This document shows, one piece after another, positions 182-53,301 of a stretch of 53,301 bases of DNA (its first letter is position 1; each line of letters starts with the position of its first letter). The stretch is from Alphaproteobacteria bacterium (lineage in GTDB: Bacteria; Pseudomonadota; Alphaproteobacteria; JALCBB01). The notes beneath the pieces were generated by a model. It made no database searches. It was given only the letters and a program-made list of their open reading frames with translations, and was not told where the DNA came from. Location of the stretch: contig JALCBB010000001.1 in NCBI GenBank assembly GCA_028066985.1, positions 1-53,301 on the forward strand, written 5' to 3'. The translations under genes and the position numbers were made by a program.

Positions 182-280
182 AAAAATTTAATTTCGCGGG
201 CAGCGCCCGCAGGCATCAGTGGACACCGCTCGCTTGAGCCGACACCGTGAATGTCTTAGTCAAAGTTTCACTAATGCCAA
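182..280 (+). repeat. Solo arm of the palindromic-unit family (A/T run, GC hairpin, GGCATCAGTGG, GCTTGAGCC, TGTCTTAGTC, CACTAATGCC)
   Basis: Hairpin GCGGGCAGCGCCCGC at 196-210. All conserved boxes shared with arms at 1640-1744, 5127-5229, 12267-12364 and the composite elements. Lies just 3' of tRNA-Ser on the opposite strand. Confidence 0.85.
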
Positions 281-1472: not shown

Positions 1473-1816
1473 CGACACCGCCCGCCTCCTCTGTCGTCAC
1501 AGACGCGACCCGCGACAACGGACACCTGCGCGGTCGTCCGTCACTGTCATTGTTAAAGGTCAATGGCGCCTCGCCCACTAATGCCACAGGCCACGCCACG
1601 GGGGACACCTTTCATGGTCGTCCGTCACCGTCATTGTCCTTTAACAATTTTAATTTTTTGTCGGCAGCGCCGACAGGCATCAGTGGGTGCGGCTCGCTTG
1701 AGCCGACACCGTTAACAGTCAATGACACCTCGCCCACTAATGCCAAGGGACGTGCCACGGGGGACGCCTTTCATGGTCGTCCGTCATCGGCGCTCAAAAG
1801 CGGGGCGAAACAATGA
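1469..1816 (+). other. Repeat-derived bridging ORF (115 codons); coding status doubtful
   Basis: ATG 1469 overlaps the mraZ stop (ATGA) and the stop overlaps the rsmH ATG 1813 (ATGA). Nearly the whole ORF is translated repeat DNA (GDTFHGRPSPSLSFNNFNFLSAAPTGISGCGSLEPT). Confidence 0.25.
1519..1790 (+). repeat. Repeat array: X hairpin, distal half-arm, X hairpin, full arm (1640-1744), X hairpin
   Basis: X = GGACACCTTTCATGGTCGTCCGTCACCGTCATTGTCC-like units at 1519-1554, 1600-1639 and 1759-1790. Arm hairpin GTCGGCAGCGCCGAC at 1660-1674; CCCACTAATGCC at 1574-1585 and 1733-1744. Confidence 0.85.
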
Positions 1817-3142: not shown

Positions 3143-5416
3143 ATGCCGAACACGCCTTCGCCGTCTCCCGACTTTCTGCTCGGACGCGACCTCCTCTCGC
3201 ACACCGGCGCGATGCGGCGGCTGCACCGTCACCGCTCGTGCCAGAACTCCGGCGCCGACCCGATGGAGCGCAGAAATCTCAGAATCCTCGTCTGCCTCGT
3301 GCTCGTCTGCTGCGGCTTCGCGACCATCATCTTCAGACTCGGCGCCGTCATGGCTCCGTGGGACAACGACAGCGCGAAACTGCCGCACCCCATCCGCGCA
3401 ATCGCCGACGCCGCCGAAAAACCCGTCATCACCGACAGGCACGGCGAAATCCTCGCAATGGATCTGCCCGCGTATTCGCCGTACGCGCGTCCGAAGGAAA
3501 TGCGGAACCCGCGCCGCGCCGCGCGACTGCTCGCGTCGGCGATTGAGGACGCCAGTCCCGTTGAACTCGCCGCCGCGTTCCAGAACGCCGCCGACAACGA
3601 CGAGCCGTTCGTCTGGGTCGCGCGGTATATTTCGCCCCGCGAGGCGCGCGCCGTGATGAAGCGCGGCGTCGTCGGCGTGGAAATGATGGCGACGAAACGG
3701 CGCAGTCATCCGCTCGGAAGTCTCGCGTCGCATGTCACCGGCTTCACCGACATTGACGGCCGCGGCCTCGCCGGAATGGAACGGCTCGCGTCGGCGCGCG
3801 CGGAAGAGGGCAGGGGATCGGGTGAGGAGATCGCGCCTGTCGCGCTGTCGCTGGATCTGCGCGTTCAGCATGCGCTGGAGGAAGAACTTCACGCCACGAT
3901 GACGAAATTCCAGGGCAAGGGCGCCGCCGGCGTCGTGATGGACGCGAACAGCGGCGAAATTCTCGCTATCGCTTCGCTGCCGAATTTTCATCCCGACCGG
4001 CGCGAGATGCTTAACGAGGAAAATCGTTTTAATCGCGCCACGCTCGGCGTCTACGAGTTCGGCTCCGTTCTCAAGCCGCTCACCTACGCGACCGTGATGG
4101 AGGCGACGCCGCGCGGCGAGTGGAGCGCGCTCTTCGCTTCGCGTTATTCAACTTCGCCGATGCGGATTCCGGGATACACGATCACGGATTATCGTCCGAA
4201 ACATGCGAATGTGAAATTCGCGGAGGGGATGATTCATTCGTCCAATGTGACGACGGCGAAGGTGATGCGCCGCATCGGCGCGCCGTCGCTCAGGGACGGC
4301 TTCCACAGACTCGGCATGGCCGAAATCGCGCCGCTGGAACTCGGCGAGCGCGGACTGCCGCAGATGCCCGCGAAGTGGGGGCCGACTGAATCGGTCACGG
4401 CGTCTTACGGGCACGGGATCGCGGTGTCGCCTGTGCATATTGTTCGCGCCTTCGCGGCGGTCGTGAACGGCGGAGTGCTGCCGTCGCCGACATTGCTTAA
4501 GGGCGGCGCGGCGCCGGGCGCGCGGGTGCTGTCGGCGGAGACTTCGGCGGTGATGCGGCGTTTGTTGCGGCTCGTCGTGCTTGAGGGAACGGGGCGCAAG
4601 GCGGACGCGGACGGGTATCTTGTCGGCGGCAAGACGGGGACTGCCAATCAGGTTTCGCCGAGCGGCGGCTATGACGACAATCTTCGCATCGCGTCTTTTG
4701 TCGCGGCGTTTCCGATGGATGCGCCGCGGTATGTGACTTTTATGATGGTGGAGAATCCGGTGCCGAGCGAGGACAGTTTCGGTTTCGCGACGGGCGGCTG
4801 GGTCGCGGCGAGCGCGACGCGTCTGCTTGTGGCGCGGATCGCGCCGTTGCTTGGCGTGCTGCCGCGTGACAGCGAGGAGTTTGACACGGGCGCCCTTAAT
4901 TTTCTGAACACACCCGATGTTAACGCGGCACCCTTTGTCGTCGTCAACAATGAAACAACGGATTACAGCCCCGGCATCTTGTCTGTCGTCCACAACACCA
5001 TTGACAGCAATGACATTGACAATGAAGCGACCGACTACAAACCCGGCGCCTTGTCTGTCGTCCACAATAAAACAACGGACAACGAAACGGACACCTTGCA
5101 TGGTCGTCCGTCACCGTCGTTGTCTCTTAATAATTTTAATTTTTTGCGGGCAGCGCCCGCGGGCATCAGTGGGCGCGGTTCGCTTGAGCCAACAGCGCGC
5201 CAGTCCGAAAATCCTCTCCCACTAATGCCGAAGGCCGTCCAGGAGGATGCGATAACCGCCGACGCCTCGCCCGTCAATGAGTCCATTGACGCCATTGACG
5301 CGATCATCGCCGACACTTTAAGCGTCCAGCCCGTTGATGAAACCGTCATCCCCGCCGCCGATGAAACGCCCGCGGACATCACCTCGCTCATTCAACTCGT
5401 CCTCAGCGGAACCTGA
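3143..5416 (+). CDS. ftsI: Peptidoglycan D,D-transpeptidase FtsI (PBP3) with a repeat-containing C-terminal extension
   Basis: SxxK (GSVLKP), SxN (HSSNV) and KTG (GGKTGTA) motifs. Start uncertain (internal Met at MERRNLRILV possible). The last ~170 codons include a repeat insertion. Confidence 0.9.
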   Translation: MPNTPSPSPDFLLGRDLLSHTGAMRRLHRHRSCQNSGADPMERRNLRILVCLVLVCCGFATIIFRLGAVMAPWDNDSAKLPHPIRAIADAAEKPVITDRHGEILAMDLPAYSPYARPKEMRNPRRAARLLASAIEDASPVELAAAFQNAADNDEPFVWVARYISPREARAVMKRGVVGVEMMATKRRSHPLGSLASHVTGFTDIDGRGLAGMERLASARAEEGRGSGEEIAPVALSLDLRVQHALEEELHATMTKFQGKGAAGVVMDANSGEILAIASLPNFHPDRREMLNEENRFNRATLGVYEFGSVLKPLTYATVMEATPRGEWSALFASRYSTSPMRIPGYTITDYRPKHANVKFAEGMIHSSNVTTAKVMRRIGAPSLRDGFHRLGMAEIAPLELGERGLPQMPAKWGPTESVTASYGHGIAVSPVHIVRAFAAVVNGGVLPSPTLLKGGAAPGARVLSAETSAVMRRLLRLVVLEGTGRKADADGYLVGGKTGTANQVSPSGGYDDNLRIASFVAAFPMDAPRYVTFMMVENPVPSEDSFGFATGGWVAASATRLLVARIAPLLGVLPRDSEEFDTGALNFLNTPDVNAAPFVVVNNETTDYSPGILSVVHNTIDSNDIDNEATDYKPGALSVVHNKTTDNETDTLHGRPSPSLSLNNFNFLRAAPAGISGRGSLEPTARQSENPLPLMPKAVQEDAITADASPVNESIDAIDAIIADTLSVQPVDETVIPAADETPADITSLIQLVLSGT
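4925..5235 (+). repeat. Repeat element inserted in frame in the ftsI 3' region
   Basis: CCTTTGTCGTC leader; two copies of a ~69-bp direct repeat (CTTGTCTGTCGTCCACAA at 4978-4995 and 5050-5067); X hairpin 5087-5126; AT run; arm hairpin GCGGGCAGCGCCCGC 5146-5160; CCCACTAATGCC 5218-5229. Same layout as 12096-12412. Confidence 0.85.
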
Positions 5417-12090: not shown

Positions 12091-12416
12091 CAAACGACTC
12101 TCACACCGCCTTTGTCGTCAATGACACAGATGACACTTTGTCTGTCGTCAACCATGCTTTGACGACCGCGACAACTGCCCCCGCCTCTTTGTCTGTCGTC
12201 AATGCACACAATGACAACGACAATGACAATGGACACCTGCATTGTCGTCCATCACTGTCATTGTCCTTTTTTATTTTTTTGCAGGCAGCGCCTGCGGGCA
12301 TCAGCGGGTGCGGCTCGCTTGAGCCAACACCTTTGCCAGTCCAAGTCGCTCGCTCACTAATGCCAGAGGCGGTGCTTCGGGGGGGCGACTTGCATGGTCG
12401 TCCATTCACATCATGA
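12087..12416 (+). other. Repeat-derived bridging ORF (109 codons); coding status doubtful
   Basis: ATG 12087 overlaps the ftsW stop (ATGA) and the stop overlaps the murG ATG 12413 (ATGA). The arm is read in the same frame as in ftsI (FFIFLQAAPAGISGCGSLEPT). Confidence 0.25.
12096..12412 (+). repeat. Repeat element between ftsW and murG, flanked by the direct repeat ATGACAAA
   Basis: CCTTTGTCGTC leader, CTTTGTCTGTCGTCAA twice, X hairpin 12229-12266, T run, arm hairpin GCAGGCAGCGCCTGC 12281-12295, CTCACTAATGCC 12353-12364, terminal AGAGGCGGTGCTTCG, second X 12382-12410. ATGACAAA at 12087-12094 and 12413-12420. Confidence 0.85.
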
Positions 12417-22654: not shown

Positions 22655-22775
22655 TGGGAGTCTGACTTAGACAGTCACGATAGCCGCTCAAGCGAACCGC
22701 GCCCGCTGATGCCCGCAGGCGCTGCCCGCAGAAAAATTAAAATTTAATTTGACTATTATATATAAGGGGCTGACT
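22626..22775 (-). repeat. Solo arm plus partial AT core, overlapping the lpxC 3' end
   Basis: GGACAACGAAGCAC terminus at 22626, GGCATTAGTGGG 22647-22658, GACTTAGACAGTCACGAT, GCTCAAGCGA, CCCGCTGATGCC 22702-22713, hairpin 22715-22729, then a degenerate core (TTGACTATTATATATAAGGGG). Confidence 0.85.
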
Positions 22776-27259: not shown

Positions 27260-27597
27260 AGGGACAAGCGAAGTGCGACCTTTGGCATTAGTGGGCGTTT
27301 GACTAAGACATTCACGATGTCGGCTCAAGCGAAAACACGCCAACTAATGGGTGCGGGCTAGCCCGCAAAAAAATAAATAATAATTTATTGACTATTTAAG
27401 GGGTCAATTAAATAAATTGCTTTCTTATTAATTGACAAATAATGGAATGGTTATTGTCTATTAAATTAATTCTTTTAATTTTATTTTTTTGCAGGCAGCG
27501 CCTGCGGGCATCAGCGGGTATCGCTCGCTTGAGCCGACATCGTGACTAGTCTTAGTCACACGCCCACTAATGCCAAGGATCAGTCTTCGGAGTCGTC
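27260..27597. mobile_element. Composite mosaic palindromic element (MITE-like), between convergent icd and the RND permease
   Basis: Left arm: AGGGACAAGCGAAG, GGCATTAGTGGG 27284-27295, GACTAAGACATTCACGATG, GCTCAAGCGA, hairpin GCGGGCTAGCCCGC 27353-27366. AT core 27367-27490. Right arm: hairpin GCAGGCAGCGCCTGC 27491-27505, GCTTGAGCC, CCCACTAATGCC 27563-27574. Confidence 0.7.
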
Positions 27598-30951: not shown

Positions 30952-31228
30952 CCGGTGGGAGCAGCCCCTGGCATTAGCGGGCGAGGAATCCAGGCTTGCC
31001 GTGACGGCCGCTCAAGCGAGCGACGCCCGCTGATGCCCGCGGGCGCTGCCCGCAAAAAATTAAATTTTAATGGACAGACGATGAATGGACGAACCGTCGG
31101 GCGGCTGTCTGTCCATTTATTTTTTTTGTCGGCAGCGCCGACAGGCGACAGTGGGTGCGGCTCGCTTGAGCCGACGCCGTTAACAGTCAATGACACCCCG
31201 CCCACTAATGCCAAGGGCGGTGCCATGG
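30952..31228. mobile_element. Composite palindromic element with a variant core, intercistronic in the RND operon
   Basis: GGCATTAGCGGG 30970-30981, CCCGCTGATGCC 31026-31037, hairpin GCGGGCGCTGCCCGC 31039-31053. The core holds a 9-bp stem TGGACAGAC 31071-31079 / GTCTGTCCA 31107-31115. Second hairpin GTCGGCAGCGCCGAC 31128-31142; CCCACTAATGCC 31201-31212. Confidence 0.7.
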
Positions 31229-34751: not shown

Positions 34752-35025
34752 CTCCCCCGACGACCAGCCCTTGGCATTAGTGGGCGTTTGACTTAGACAG
34801 TCACGATGTTCGCTCAAGCGAGCCGCACCCACTGATGCCCGCAGGCGCTGCCTGCAAAAAAATAAATTAAAGATTAAATGGACTATTTAAGGGGTCAATT
34901 AAATAAATTGTTTTTTTATTTTTTAATTTTTTGCGGGCTAGCCCGCACCCATCTGCTGGCATCGTTCGCTTGAGCGGCTGTTGTGAATGTCTTAGTCAAA
35001 GTCTTACTAATGCCAAAGGCTGTTT
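34752..35025. mobile_element. Composite mosaic palindromic element (short core), between convergent msrP and hemB
   Basis: GGCATTAGTGGG 34773-34784, CCCACTGATGCC 34828-34839, hairpin GCAGGCGCTGCCTGC 34841-34855, core 34856-34932, hairpin GCGGGCTAGCCCGC 34933-34946, CTTACTAATGCC 35003-35014. Confidence 0.7.
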
Positions 35026-36509: not shown

Positions 36510-36840
36510 AAGACAGACGAAGTGCCACATTCGGCATTAGTGGGCGTCTGACTAAGACAGTCACGATGTTTGCTCAAGCGAGCCGCACCCACTGATGCCC
36601 GCAGGCGCTGCCTGCAAAAAAATAAAATTAAAAAGAAATTAATTTATTTAATAGACACCATTAATTGTCTATTAATGAAAAGGCAATTGATTTAATTGAC
36701 CCCTTAAATAGTCAATAAATTATTATTTATTTTTTGCGGGCTAGCCCGCACCCGTCTGCTGGCATCGTTCGCTTGAGCCGACACCTTAAGAGTCTAAAAT
36801 TCTCGCCCACTAATGCCAGAAGCCGCACTTCGCCTGTCTC
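36510..36840. mobile_element. Composite mosaic palindromic element (archetype), between convergent moaE and ychF
   Basis: Terminal inverted repeats AAGACAGACGAAGTGCC... / ...GCACTTCGCCTGTCTC. GGCATTAGTGGG 36533-36544, CCCACTGATGCC 36588-36599, hairpin 36601-36615, AT core 36616-36735, hairpin GCGGGCTAGCCCGC 36736-36749, CCCACTAATGCC 36806-36817. TAATTAA on both flanks. Confidence 0.75.
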
Positions 36841-40321: not shown

Positions 40322-40414
40322 GGGGGTATTGTGGCTGGAGTGGGGGTTTTGTGGAGTTTAGGGGTGGATTTTGGCGAGGTCAAGTGCGACTTTCGGACAA
40401 TTTAGGGACAATTT

Positions 40415-40454
40415 AGAGACAGACGAAGAGCCGCCCTTGGCATTAGTGGGCGCC
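40415..40454. repeat. Isolated element terminus fragment
   Basis: AGAGACAGACGAAGAGCCGCCCTTGGCATTAGTGGGCGCC is the outer ~40 nt of an arm, followed by TTAATTAA (40456-40463) and then a full element. Confidence 0.6.
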
Positions 40455-40463
40455 TTTAATTAA

Positions 40464-40794
40464 GGGACAACGAAGCACGGCCTCTGGCATTAGTGGGAGA
40501 TTGACCAAGACATTCACAATAGTCGCTCAAGCGAGCGATGCCAGCAGATGGGTGCGGGCTAGCCCGCAAAAAAAATTAAAAATTAATTTTGACTATTAAT
40601 GGGGTCAATTAAATAAATTGTCTTTTCATTAATAGACAATTAATGGTGTCTATTAAATAAATTAATTTCTTTTTAATTTTATTTTTTTGCAGGCAGCGCC
40701 TGCGGGCATTAGTGGGCGCGGTTCGCTTGAGCGGCTGTTGTGAATGTCTTGGTCAAACTCCCACTAATGCCAAAGATCGCACTTCGTTTGTCTC
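40464..40794. mobile_element. Composite mosaic palindromic element (inverted relative to 36510-36840), between the prs start and the GNAT stop
   Basis: GGGACAACGAAG end, GGCATTAGTGGG 40486-40497, hairpin GCGGGCTAGCCCGC 40554-40567, AT core 40568-40688, hairpin GCAGGCAGCGCCTGC 40689-40703, CCCACTAATGCC 40760-40771, end CACTTCGTTTGTCTC. Confidence 0.75.
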
Positions 40795-40795
40795 T

Positions 40796-41521
40796 TTAAC
40801 TTAGTGTCGGGTCCCTTTTAAAGAGGATTTTCCCGGTAAGGGCGCTGAGAGAAACTTTTTGCACCCCGTCAGAATCGAAGTTGTCAGGGTCAAGGTATGT
40901 CTGAAAACATCCCTTAAGCCGAAGCCACTCCTTATCTATCGCGGCAAACCACGCAGTGTCCCTGTTCCTGCCCTTGTAGACAGTCGCCTGTCTGAAAATT
41001 CCCTCGTAAGAAAGTCCAAGCCTCTGCGCGGCGCGGCGAGACCTGAGATTGAGAGCGTCGCACTTCCACTCATACCTGCGATACCCGTTGTCAAAAGCCC
41101 ACTGCATCATCAGAAACATCGCCTCCGTCGCCGCGACCGTGTTCTGCAGCAAAGGCGAAAAATTAATGTGTCCGACCTCTATAGACCGATCACGCGGCTT
41201 GATCCGCAGATAACTCGCGACACCGCAAGCCTCGCCCGTGTCTCGCCGTGTAAGAGCGAAATAAACCGGATCACGAAGACCCTCAACACTCCTCAGCCAC
41301 GCAATGTAGGACTCAAGAGTGTCAAAAGGACCGTACGGCATATAAGTCCAGATGAGATTCTGCTCGTCTCTCCGATTCGCGGAGAAGAGTTGCGTCCCGT
41401 GCTTGTCGGCCGAGAGCGGAGAGACAGAGACATACCGCCCGCTCAAGGTGATGTTGTCGGGGGTCGGCGGCGTTTCGGTGTCCGCGACGGGTTCGCCGAT
41501 TTGGGGAGTGGAGGCGCTCAT
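40796..41521 (-). CDS. GNAT family N-acetyltransferase (RimJ/RimL-like)
   Basis: 241 aa from ATG 41521 (MSASTPQIG). Acetyltransf_3-like region IEVGHINFSPLLQNTVAATEAMFLMMQWAFDNGYRRYEWKCDALNLRSRRAAQRLG. The longer 501-aa track ORF is rejected. Confidence 0.85.
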   Translation of the reverse strand: MSASTPQIGEPVADTETPPTPDNITLSGRYVSVSPLSADKHGTQLFSANRRDEQNLIWTYMPYGPFDTLESYIAWLRSVEGLRDPVYFALTRRDTGEACGVASYLRIKPRDRSIEVGHINFSPLLQNTVAATEAMFLMMQWAFDNGYRRYEWKCDALNLRSRRAAQRLGLSYEGIFRQATVYKGRNRDTAWFAAIDKEWLRLKGCFQTYLDPDNFDSDGVQKVSLSALTGKILFKRDPTLS

Positions 41522-41620
41522 ATTGAAGGACTTAAGACTATGATGACCACGCTGATTCGGGAAGGGGGTCTCGGCGACGGGTTTATTGATAAACGGACGC
41601 GGAGGGTATAGTCTTATTAT

Positions 41621-42220
41621 ATGAGGGTTCATGAAATTTTCGAGCGCTCGCTTGGACATCAGGAGCGTTTTGGCGGCTTTTTCGTCTTCGGCGGACGCGC
41701 GCCGCGCTCCGAGTATTTGTCGGGGACGATCATTCTGTTTTTGTCCGGATTTTTGTTCAGTCTGCTGGTGCATGTGATTTACACGCGGTGCGGACGGCCT
41801 GTTTTCTGTTCTTATGTGTTGTCGCCGTTGTATGCGTTTAATGTGGCGCTGCTGGTGTTTCTGGTGCTGGCGATGCTGTGTCAGCGTATTCGTCGTTTTC
41901 ACGACTTCGGAGTTTCGGGGTTGTTCGCGATTTTGACGGCGCCGTTTGTGCCGTTTATTTTGTGGGCGTATTTCACCTGGCCGCAATTTTCTCATATTGA
42001 CGGACTGCTTCCTCATGCGCCTTCGTTTTACGAGACGCGTCTGGTGCGCGGGGTGTTGTTTCTGGTGCTTGGGGTGTTTGTGTTGTTGCCGTTTATTATG
42101 CCGGGGAATCGCCGCGGGGAGTATTATGATCTGGAGTGGCAGGCGCGGACGCATCGCCTTGATGTACTTGCGCGCGATCGCCGCACGCAGGAGCGCAGGA
42201 AGGTCCGCGGCAAAACTTGA
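41621..42220 (+). CDS. DUF805 domain-containing inner membrane protein
   Basis: GGRAPRSEY, RIRRFHDFGVSG and PGNRRGEYY resemble the DUF805 (YhaH-like) motifs; 4-5 TM helices. The GA of the TGA stop is the first two bases of the next element. Confidence 0.75.
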   Translation: MRVHEIFERSLGHQERFGGFFVFGGRAPRSEYLSGTIILFLSGFLFSLLVHVIYTRCGRPVFCSYVLSPLYAFNVALLVFLVLAMLCQRIRRFHDFGVSGLFAILTAPFVPFILWAYFTWPQFSHIDGLLPHAPSFYETRLVRGVLFLVLGVFVLLPFIMPGNRRGEYYDLEWQARTHRLDVLARDRRTQERRKVRGKT

Positions 42221-42551
42221 GACAGACGAAGAGCAGTCTGTGGCATTAGTGGGCGTGTGACTAAGACATTCACAACATCCGCTCAAGCGAACCGCGCCCA
42301 CTTAAGCCCGCAGGCGCTGCCTGCAAAAAAATAAAATTAAAAAGAAATTAATTTATTTAATAGACACCATTAATTGTCTATTAATGAAAAGACAATTTAT
42401 TTAATTGACCCCATTAATGGTCAAAATTAATTTTTAATTTTTTTTTGCGGGCTAGCCCGCACCCATCTGCTGGCATCGCTCGCTTGAGCCAACGCCTTAA
42501 AAGTCTGAAATTCTCGCCCGCTAATGCCATAGGCCGCCCTTCGTCTGTCCC
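42219..42551. mobile_element. Composite mosaic palindromic element, between DUF805 and aapJ
   Basis: GAGACAGACGAAG 42219-42231, GGCATTAGTGGG 42242-42253, hairpin 42310-42324, AT core 42325-42446, hairpin GCGGGCTAGCCCGC 42447-42460, CCCGCTAATGCC 42517-42528, end CCTTCGTCTGTCCC. Confidence 0.75.
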
Positions 42552-47325: not shown

Positions 47326-47615
47326 GGGGACAAACGAAGCACGGCCTCTGGCATTAGTGGGAGTTTGACCTAGACAGTCACGATGTTGGCTCAAGCGAAA
47401 CACACCAACTAATGGGTGCGGGCTAGCCCGCAAAAAATAAATAATAATTTATTGACTATTTAAGGGGTCAATTAAATAAATTAATTTCTTTTTAATTTAA
47501 TTTTTTTTGCAGGCAGCGCCTGCGGGCATCAGTGGGCGCTGTTTGCTTGAGCCAACGCTTTAAGAGTCTAAATTTCACGCCCACTAATGCCAAATGCCGC
47601 ACTTTGTCTGTCTCC
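47326..47615. mobile_element. Composite mosaic palindromic element (core lacking the middle module), between aapP and alaX
   Basis: GGGGACAAACGAAG end, GGCATTAGTGGG 47350-47361, hairpin GCGGGCTAGCCCGC 47418-47431, core 47432-47508, hairpin GCAGGCAGCGCCTGC 47509-47523, CCCACTAATGCC 47580-47591, end CACTTTGTCTGTCTCC. Confidence 0.75.
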
Positions 47616-49752: not shown

Positions 49753-50085
49753 AGAGACAACGAAGCACCGCCCCTGGCATTAGTGAGACTTTGACTAAGA
49801 CATTCACGGCGTTGGCTCAAGCAAACAGCGCCAACTAATGCCCGCAGGCGCTGCCTGCAAAAAATAAAATTAAAAGAATTAATTTAATAGACAATAACCA
49901 TTCCATTATTTGTCAATTAATAAGAAAGCAATTTATTTAATTGACCCCTTAAATAGTCAATAAATTATTATTTATTTTTTGCGGGCTAGCCCGCACCCAT
50001 CTGCTGGCATCGCTCGCTTGAGCCAACAGCGTGACTTTCTTAGTCAAACTCCCACTAATGCCAAGGGCCGCACTTCGCTTGTCTC
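49753..50085. mobile_element. Composite mosaic palindromic element, between convergent OsmC-fusion and dehydrogenase genes
   Basis: AGAGACAACGAAG 49753-49765, GGCATTAGTGAG 49776-49787, hairpin GCAGGCGCTGCCTGC 49844-49858, AT core 49859-49980, hairpin GCGGGCTAGCCCGC 49981-49994, CCCACTAATGCC 50051-50062, end CACTTCGCTTGTCTC abutting the stop CTA 50086-50088. Confidence 0.75.
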
Positions 50086-53043: not shown

Positions 53044-53073
53044 GGGGGAGCCTGTTTGGCTCCCCCTTTTTTT
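53044..53073 (+). terminator. Rho-independent terminator of the SBP gene
   Basis: Stem GGGGGAGCC (53044-53052) / GGCTCCCCC (53058-53066), loop TGTTT, then TTTTTTT (53067-53073). Confidence 0.85.
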
Positions 53074-53080
53074 GTCAACG

Positions 53081-53301
53081 AGGGACAACGACGACCCGCC
53101 CTTGGCATTAGTGGGAGATTGACTAAGACATTCACGATGTCGGCTCAAGCGAGCGATGCCGGCAGATGGGTGCGGGCTAGCCCGCAAAAAATAAATAATA
53201 ATTTATTGACTATTTAAGGGGTCAATTAAATCGGCGTGCAGCCTCCGGCATTAGTGGGAGATTGACTAAGACATTCACGATAGCCGCTCAAGCGAACCGC
53301 A
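53081..53301. mobile_element. Composite element interrupted in its core by a second arm; truncated by the window end
   Basis: AGGGACAACGACG end, GGCATTAGTGGG 53104-53115, hairpin GCGGGCTAGCCCGC 53172-53185, core up to ...GGGGTCAATTAAAT (about 53230). A new arm then starts with GGCATTAGTGGG at 53247-53258 in the same orientation. Confidence 0.65.

Follow-up and report, generated by a model that had tools for sequence, protein, structure and literature searches.

The hairpin HP1, a GC-rich structure of 14-15 bases that lies inside a repeat of about 100 nt (the arm), is probably a structure-constrained module of a lineage-specific palindromic DNA repeat of REP/BIME-like character, in which pairing is kept at the DNA level; we give this reading a probability of about 55%. 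Complementarity rather than sequence persists in HP1, and the pattern is real and non-random. The window, that is, the whole stretch of DNA that was analyzed, comprises 53,301 nt (assembly GCA_028066985.1, contig JALCBB010000001.1, positions 1 to 53,301). Its source is probably 'Ca. Luteria ianthellae', the dominant alphaproteobacterial symbiont of the sponge Ianthella basta (PMC10947273), and the genome assembly amounts to 2.01 Mb in 199 contigs, with 60.6% G+C and a completeness of 95%.

The Hairpin and the Repeat That Carries It

An initial annotation of the window had listed HP1 variants at a series of positions, and every one of them was re-found in place: four copies of GCAGGC-AGC-GCCTGC (type A1), two of GCGGGC-AGC-GCCCGC together with one reverse form, two of GTCGGC-AGC-GCCGAC, all eight of GCGGGC-TA-GCCCGC (type B) and one mismatched copy. 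The list was short by four type A1 copies in reverse orientation (GCAGGC-GCT-GCCTGC). By chance, 0.00-0.01 pattern matches are expected per window, as estimated from dinucleotide-preserving shuffles. The features of the window are as follows.

196-210, forward strand: HP1, GCGGGC-AGC-GCCCGC
1650-1751, forward strand: complete arm unit (AT stretch and T-run, HP1, invariant TCGCTTGAGC, CCCACTAATGCC end), a solo arm upstream of rsmH
1660-1674, forward strand: HP1, GTCGGC-AGC-GCCGAC, the hairpin on which the initial annotation centered
5146-5160, forward strand: HP1, GCGGGC-AGC-GCCCGC
12281-12295, forward strand: HP1, type A1
22715-22729, reverse strand: mismatched HP1, GCGGGC-AGC-GCCTGC, a gene-conversion chimera
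27353-27366, reverse strand: HP1, type B, left end of composite element 27276-27578
27491-27505, forward strand: HP1, type A1, right end of the same element
31039-31053, reverse strand: HP1, GCGGGC-AGC-GCCCGC
31128-31142, forward strand: HP1, GTCGGC-AGC-GCCGAC
34841-34855, reverse strand: HP1, type A1, absent from the initial list
34933-34946, forward strand: HP1, type B
36601-36615, reverse strand: HP1, type A1, absent from the initial list
36616-36735, no strand assigned: AT-rich core between two hairpins, with the palindromic motifs TTGAC-N10-GTCAA and AATAGACA-N8-TGTCTATT
36736-36749, forward strand: HP1, type B
40554-40567, reverse strand: HP1, type B
40689-40703, forward strand: HP1, type A1
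42310-42324, reverse strand: HP1, type A1, absent from the initial list; the element has its inner part inverted in strain locus L073
42447-42460, forward strand: HP1, type B; type A1 instead in L073, via inversion
47418-47431, reverse strand: HP1, type B; whole element 47338-47603 inverted in L070 and L074
47509-47523, forward strand: HP1, type A1, in the same invertible element
49844-49858, reverse strand: HP1, type A1, absent from the initial list; inner part of the element inverted in L070
49981-49994, forward strand: HP1, type B, partner of the preceding hairpin in one element
53172-53185, reverse strand: HP1, type B, loop TA in the window and TG in L070

A profile search found 1,021 arm copies in the 2.01-Mb genome, or about 5% of its DNA. 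Each arm runs from a T-run of 6-9 T through HP1, which follows directly and stands 10-14 nt from the inner end, to the invariant TCGCTTGAGC and the conserved CCCACTAATGCC. In the genome-wide arm alignment the foot of HP1 consists of the T-run (columns 5-10 are more than 90% T) and, on the 3' side, of R-G/C-G/C. The decamer TCGCTTGAGC (columns 45-54, for example 1693-1702 in the window) is almost invariant in 771 copies; the neighboring columns are polymorphic at about 50:50.

A complete element consists of two back-to-back arms around a core with a median length of 123 bp and 83% A+T, in the order arm, hairpin, AT-rich core, hairpin, arm, and the inverted repetition of the two arms extends as far as their outer ends. 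Arm pairs occur genome-wide 157 times back to back, 18 times in the opposite inverted arrangement (+,-) and 96 times in tandem. Type B and type A1 are found together at the two ends of 88 of the 157 back-to-back pairs, and merely 7 and 3 such pairs are homotypic for one or the other of these two main types. The two commonest hairpin versions thus mark the opposite, differentiated ends of a single composite element. In the examples inspected, the TTGAC-N10-GTCAA motif of the core adjoins the TA-loop end, and this palindrome recurs beside that end in most full elements. The core at 36616-36735 also contains a promoter-like sequence, TTGACC-16 nt-AATTAT, at 36696-36723 (forward strand), pointing outward through the TA-loop hairpin.

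The other hairpin versions are mostly found in solo arms with unrelated, G+C-rich upstream sequence; such arms begin about 12 nt ahead of the hairpin, with AATTTAATTTTTT. A second small palindromic module, (A)TGTTTCGCGCGAAACAT, recurs genome-wide right before the AT stretch of several solo arms. In ten core-less doublets the two hairpins are separated by A5-7 alone (T5-7 on the other strand); they lie at C113:5666, C129:4986, C77:8492, C122:7327 and six other contig positions, and one of their strands is terminator-like, with a hairpin followed by a T-run.

With crude gene calls, the outer end of the arm is directed toward a gene 3' end in 531 cases vs 240 (69%), at a median distance of 31 nt. 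The preference is about 71:29 for both hairpin types, whichever end of the element they mark. No copy of the arm repeat was found in 40 class-level relatives, in the one further genome of the order (searched with a covariance model) or in JGI metagenome contigs. The repeat is lineage-specific, without copies outside the species among the 41 relatives.

Persistence of Pairing

In the alignment of the 22 window copies, the pair changes described in the initial annotation hold: pair 13-23 occurs as G-C, A-U, C-G and once as G-U, and pair 12-24 as C-G and U-A. All cells of the six-pair helix (100%) are paired, and two pairs are changed on both sides; the covariation score is reached by 0 of 500 shuffles, and controls in which the partner was slid by 1-3 columns are 29-48% paired. 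The annotation had proposed an alignment of all genomic copies with a statistical test of covariation. When this was carried out, 752 of the 771 aligned stems were perfect. Among the 760 distinct rows, 99.6% of the cells are paired and four of the six pairs are changed on both sides, and the pairing is reached by 0 of 500 shuffles even when the 3' letters are permuted within groups of the same loop/3'-flank haplotype.

The perfect stems fall into seven types (GCGGGC, 433 copies; GCAGGC, 268; GGCGGC, 29; GTCGGC, 16; GCGGCG, 4; GCCGCC and GCGGAC, 1 each), around a loop of 2 or 3 nt. Each imperfect version is present in at most two copies. About five of the 19 imperfect hairpins are chimera-like and the remainder are mostly single transitions. 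To connect the perfect types, about nine pairs must have been substituted, and each of the 18 base changes falls on a complementary partner. One copy carries a private compensated pair, GCGGAC-GGC-GTCCGC, and its near-twin element reads GCGGGC-GGC-GCCCGC; in another hairpin the loop is reverse-complemented, from GGC to GCC.

The arm contains 45 variable columns (minor allele at least 10%), for which the median r2 is 0.14 between adjacent columns and 0.03 at a distance of 4-12 nt. Paired positions do not vary independently: r2(13,23) is 0.989, the highest value among the 990 column pairs. Column 23 shows 132 exceptions with column 26, which is 3 nt away, vs 9 with its pairing partner 13, which is 10 nt away. 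Because r2 reaches 0.99 at 13/23 against a median of 0.03, clonal descent alone is insufficient to explain the pairing.

The variable columns of the arm as a whole (26-100, genome-wide) differ mostly by transitions and are nearly unlinked even when adjacent, a mosaic that is unusual for a repeat family.

Within columns 17-28, which make up a haplotype block, r2 rises to 0.65-0.95 for unpaired columns as well (0.95 for both 18-27 and 19-28), and the hairpin block as a whole (columns ~11-28) behaves as a single unit. The variation is best seen as about seven discrete hairpin-block haplotypes and not as hundreds of independent events; roughly 6-9 historical double changes are needed to account for them. 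Rare alleles number 2.5 per column in the stem vs 1.9 in the rest of the arm. The stem columns are thus not depleted of rare changes, and by this measure they give no indication of site-by-site purifying selection. The earlier proposal of selection on the structure itself rather than on primary sequence therefore stands in so far as complementarity is kept through seven stem sequences, and is not borne out at the level of rare alleles.

Rearrangement of the Hairpins between Strains

Other assemblies of the same symbiont comprise a near-identical group (99.9%) and a lineage that is 1-3% diverged in the flanking DNA, to which GCA_028067315.1, GCA_028067365.1 and samples of PRJEB9378 belong. No hairpin changes were found among the near-identical strains, and the divergent lineage alone is informative. 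Between the lineages, elements 47338-47603 and 49764-50074 are inverted, so that the hairpin types swap sides. Element 42231-42539 is inverted in L073 and retains the window orientation in the sister loci L069, L070 and L074 of the diverged lineage. The crossovers of these inversions lie at the outer arm ends or at about columns 37-54, a region that includes the decamer TCGCTTGAGC. Assembly noise does not account for the orientation differences, since they recur in assemblies made independently, one of which supplies a closed contig of 2.27 Mb (ERZ21781341 ctg64743c).

The mismatched copy at 22715-22729, which had been taken for a simple exception to the pairing, is a gene-conversion chimera when compared with its orthologue. 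The orthologue in the other lineage has a perfect hairpin, GCGGGC-GGC-GCCCGC, and differs by seven substitutions, all confined to arm columns 17-39 with none elsewhere in the arm. Because the substitutions are limited to these columns, the mismatch can be attributed to a 23-nt conversion tract, one boundary of which falls in the hairpin loop. The chimeric hairpin persists in several near-identical assemblies, and any self-correction is therefore not fast.

Local two-sided compensation was not found between orthologous hairpins in the pairs compared. At a given locus, one hairpin type gives way to another through inversion of the element or through a short gene-conversion tract; this replaces the idea that the variants arise by local compensation, at least as far as differences between strains are concerned.

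Two further strain differences concern the neighborhood of the hairpins. Strains that are 99.9% identical may have or lack a 43-bp piece of the AT-rich core (TTAAATCAATTGCC...GGTGTCT) with the direct repeat ATTAAAT at its boundaries (window 36616-36735 vs L043 and L045). In one strain of the divergent lineage, a synteny break falls at a repeat element: the genes upstream of the 42231 element in L069 (1-7000, compared with window 40400-42300) encode PPDK, peptidase M20 and DUF1028, and not GNAT and DUF805.

Probable Maintenance of the Pairing in DNA

Together, the evidence leans toward a DNA rather than an RNA basis of the HP1 pairing. HP1 may fold in single-stranded DNA or be extruded beside the easily melted AT core, during replication or recombination. 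Pairing would then be kept by one of two routes: either only hairpin versions competent to fold are copied onward, or a stem mismatch is resolved by copying one half from the other, as in quasipalindrome template switching. The second is a mutational route that could keep the pairing without selection, and according to published work stems can arise and persist through template switching (PMC8794818, PMC8604942). The hairpin versions are redistributed among the copies by inversion of elements and by short gene-conversion tracts. Calculated as DNA, the HP1 variants have folding energies of -6.4 to -8.8 kcal/mol, and the 22715 chimera -5.2 kcal/mol. Some points count against the DNA reading, namely that the stem, at 6 bp, is short for a cruciform to be stable, that independent compensatory events are few (about 6-9) and that no cognate enzyme was found in the genome searched.

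The enzyme searches covered the genome in six frames. They gave no match to Y1 (RAYT/IS200, PF01797), for which control genomes do match, and none to DDE_Tnp_1, rve, RVT_1 (reverse transcriptase), TnpB or resolvase/invertase; with a control that stayed silent, the search for Y2 carries no information. Only two tyrosine recombinases were found, the number expected for XerC and XerD. Thus, the genome searches identified no mobilizing or hairpin-binding enzyme for HP1, a negative that rests on a 95%-complete assembly of 199 contigs from which repeated genes could have dropped out.

Alternative Explanations

REP sequences in E. coli mRNAs form hairpins that block 3' exonucleases or mark processing sites. 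HP1 might similarly act in 3' UTRs or 5' leaders under selection on the RNA, an explanation that we regard as possible and rather doubtful. The arms lie mostly just behind genes, at the short distance given above, and HP1 folds equally well as RNA (mean -10.3 kcal/mol, z about -3.6). It is the sole significant fold in the arm, with a mean z of -3.65 on the forward and -3.54 on the reverse strand and with 97-98% of the copies below -2. In 98% of the copies HP1 can be closed by one more pair, T10-R26, which reads U-A or U-G on the arm strand, and compensatory changes in the Bacillus repeat bcr1 have been interpreted as RNA structure (PMC3184786). On the other hand, the mismatches in the 771 aligned hairpins include 9 G-T vs 8 A-C, so that strand-specific wobble tolerance is not apparent. 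The orientation relative to transcription is not fixed, because both hairpin types show the 71:29 ratio and elements flip between strains. The remaining segments of the arm have z values of +0.2 to -1.8, and RNAalifold returns HP1 only, other candidate helices showing uncompensated variation. Rfam gives no match beyond spurious long-hairpin hits. The features of a structured ncRNA family are therefore not seen here, there being a single covarying helix, no G-U asymmetry and no curated match. The stems lack an excess purifying signal as well, and selection at each of about 1,000 loci would be implausible in what is probably a small symbiont population.

A multi-helix RNA model of the arm was also considered, in which a long stem of GGCATCAGTGGG and CCCACTAATGCC encloses CGGCTC-GCTT-GAGCCG. 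It was rejected, since the long stem is disrupted in type B arms with no compensating change, and the model fails further on uncompensated variable positions and on non-significant z-scores.

A stronger form of the DNA reading is that, in a genome with no detectable transposase, reverse transcriptase or invertase, the palindrome maintains itself, complementarity, flips and homogenization of hairpins and arms all resulting from replication template switching and short-tract conversion alone, where DNA folds back beside the readily melting AT core. We consider this unlikely; if true, a repeat could persist and come to occupy about 5% of a genome independently of any enzyme. In a bolder variant, the hairpin-bounded cores with their promoter-like TTGACC-N16-AATTAT would be hundreds of invertible switches.

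BIMEs are bound by gyrase and IHF, the linker by IHF and the REP by gyrase or Pol I. HP1 could likewise be a site in duplex DNA, a palindrome at the edge of the AT core whose symmetry is conserved through binding of a dimeric protein such as a nucleoid protein, gyrase or a recombinase. The constant position at the core/arm junction and the further palindromic motifs in the core would fit such a site, and gyrase at REP has been mentioned (PMC6379681). However, a homodimer should conserve its half-site, and in HP1 the half-sites differ (GCGGGC, GCAGGC, GGCGGC, GTCGGC) while complementarity is always kept, and the spacing between them changes between 2 and 3 nt. Because both half-sites and loop length vary, a sequence-specific duplex site is argued against, and we regard it as improbable.

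The view that no structural constraint exists, the covariation being shared ancestry of a few clonal subfamilies that descend from perfect palindromes, is largely refuted. It draws on the small number of stem haplotypes (about seven), on the strong linkage disequilibrium of unpaired columns in block 11-28 and on the density of rare alleles in the stems, which is the same as in the rest of the arm. It is contradicted by the placement of all 18 base changes on complementary partners, the scarcity of each imperfect version, the contrast of 9 with 132 exceptions over 10 and 3 nt, the failure of all 500 within-haplotype shuffles to reach the pairing and the existence of private compensated variants.

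An intrinsic terminator for the flanking genes, suggested by the GC-rich stem beside a T-run and by the one hairpin-T5-7 strand of the core-less doublets, is rejected on the position of the T-run: read outward, ordinary copies have it 5' of HP1, read inward an A-run follows, and the order hairpin then U never occurs, nor does a scan for terminators call any HP1 copy. A canonical intrinsic terminator is present nearby for comparison, at 53047-53072 (forward strand) after an SBP_bac_5 gene (GGGGGAGCC-TGTTT-GGCTCCCCC followed by T7), and ordinary terminators therefore coexist with the repeats in this genome.

Implications

Compensatory change is usually read as proof of a functional RNA, and the same signature is found here in a DNA repeat, without strand preference and as the product of a few hairpin versions that inversion and gene conversion move about. 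This calls for caution in covariation-based discovery of RNAs in repeat-rich symbiont genomes. With about 1,000 arms in a 2-Mb genome, differentiated ends, frequent flips and no transposase, the repeat could serve for studying how palindromic DNA is maintained.

Relation to Known Repeat Systems

Compensatory change in repeat hairpins is already known from REPINs (PMC3116915) and bcr1 (PMC3184786); the symbiont repeat family and its architecture appear to be undescribed. The closest likeness is to the REP, BIME and REPIN sequences of gamma- and betaproteobacteria, which likewise occur by the hundreds as short GC-rich palindromes in extragenic DNA, for the most part behind genes. The arm repeat shares with them the high copy number and the inverted doublet as the main arrangement. 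The two hairpin types around a linker, found here in 88 of 157 pairs, resemble the Y and Z REPs of a BIME, and stem pairing is likewise kept by compensatory changes in REPINs, where such changes are common (PMC3116915). The symbiont genome differs from REP/REPIN-RAYT systems in having no RAYT gene. In place of the GTAG-type 5' motif of REPs, the foot of HP1 has a T-run; the stem is only 6-7 bp and lies inside an arm of about 100 nt that is otherwise unstructured; the linker is a modular core of about 120 bp with 83% A+T; and, unlike REPs, the arm has no copies outside the species among the 41 relatives.

Correia elements of Neisseria and MITEs are similarly abundant at gene ends, measure about 100-350 bp and have terminal inverted repeats, which the arms also form, around a central region; they also include subtypes with differing ends, as does the arm element. 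No related transposase was found in the symbiont genome, and the conserved hairpin is internal, at the arm/core junction, rather than at the tip. The mobile repeat bcr1 of the Bacillus cereus group, about 155 bp long, has a predicted structure that is likewise kept by compensatory changes; it differs in being transcribed and in having 5-bp direct repeats at its ends, whereas one small hairpin covaries in the arm repeat (PMC3184786). As in an inverton, the segment between inverted repeats is found in both orientations, at 42231-42539, 47338-47603 and 49764-50074, and the symbiont genome differs in having no dedicated invertase gene.

Quasipalindrome template switching is a mutational process and not an element family, and homologous recombination from arm to arm would account for the inversions just as well. 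The process predicts one-step perfecting of inverted repeats, homogenization of their arms and inversion of the spacer (PMC7202029, PMC8794818, PMC8604942). All three patterns are found in the symbiont repeat, at the scale of the hairpin, in the private compensated pair and the inverted loop, and at the scale of the element, in the inverted core.
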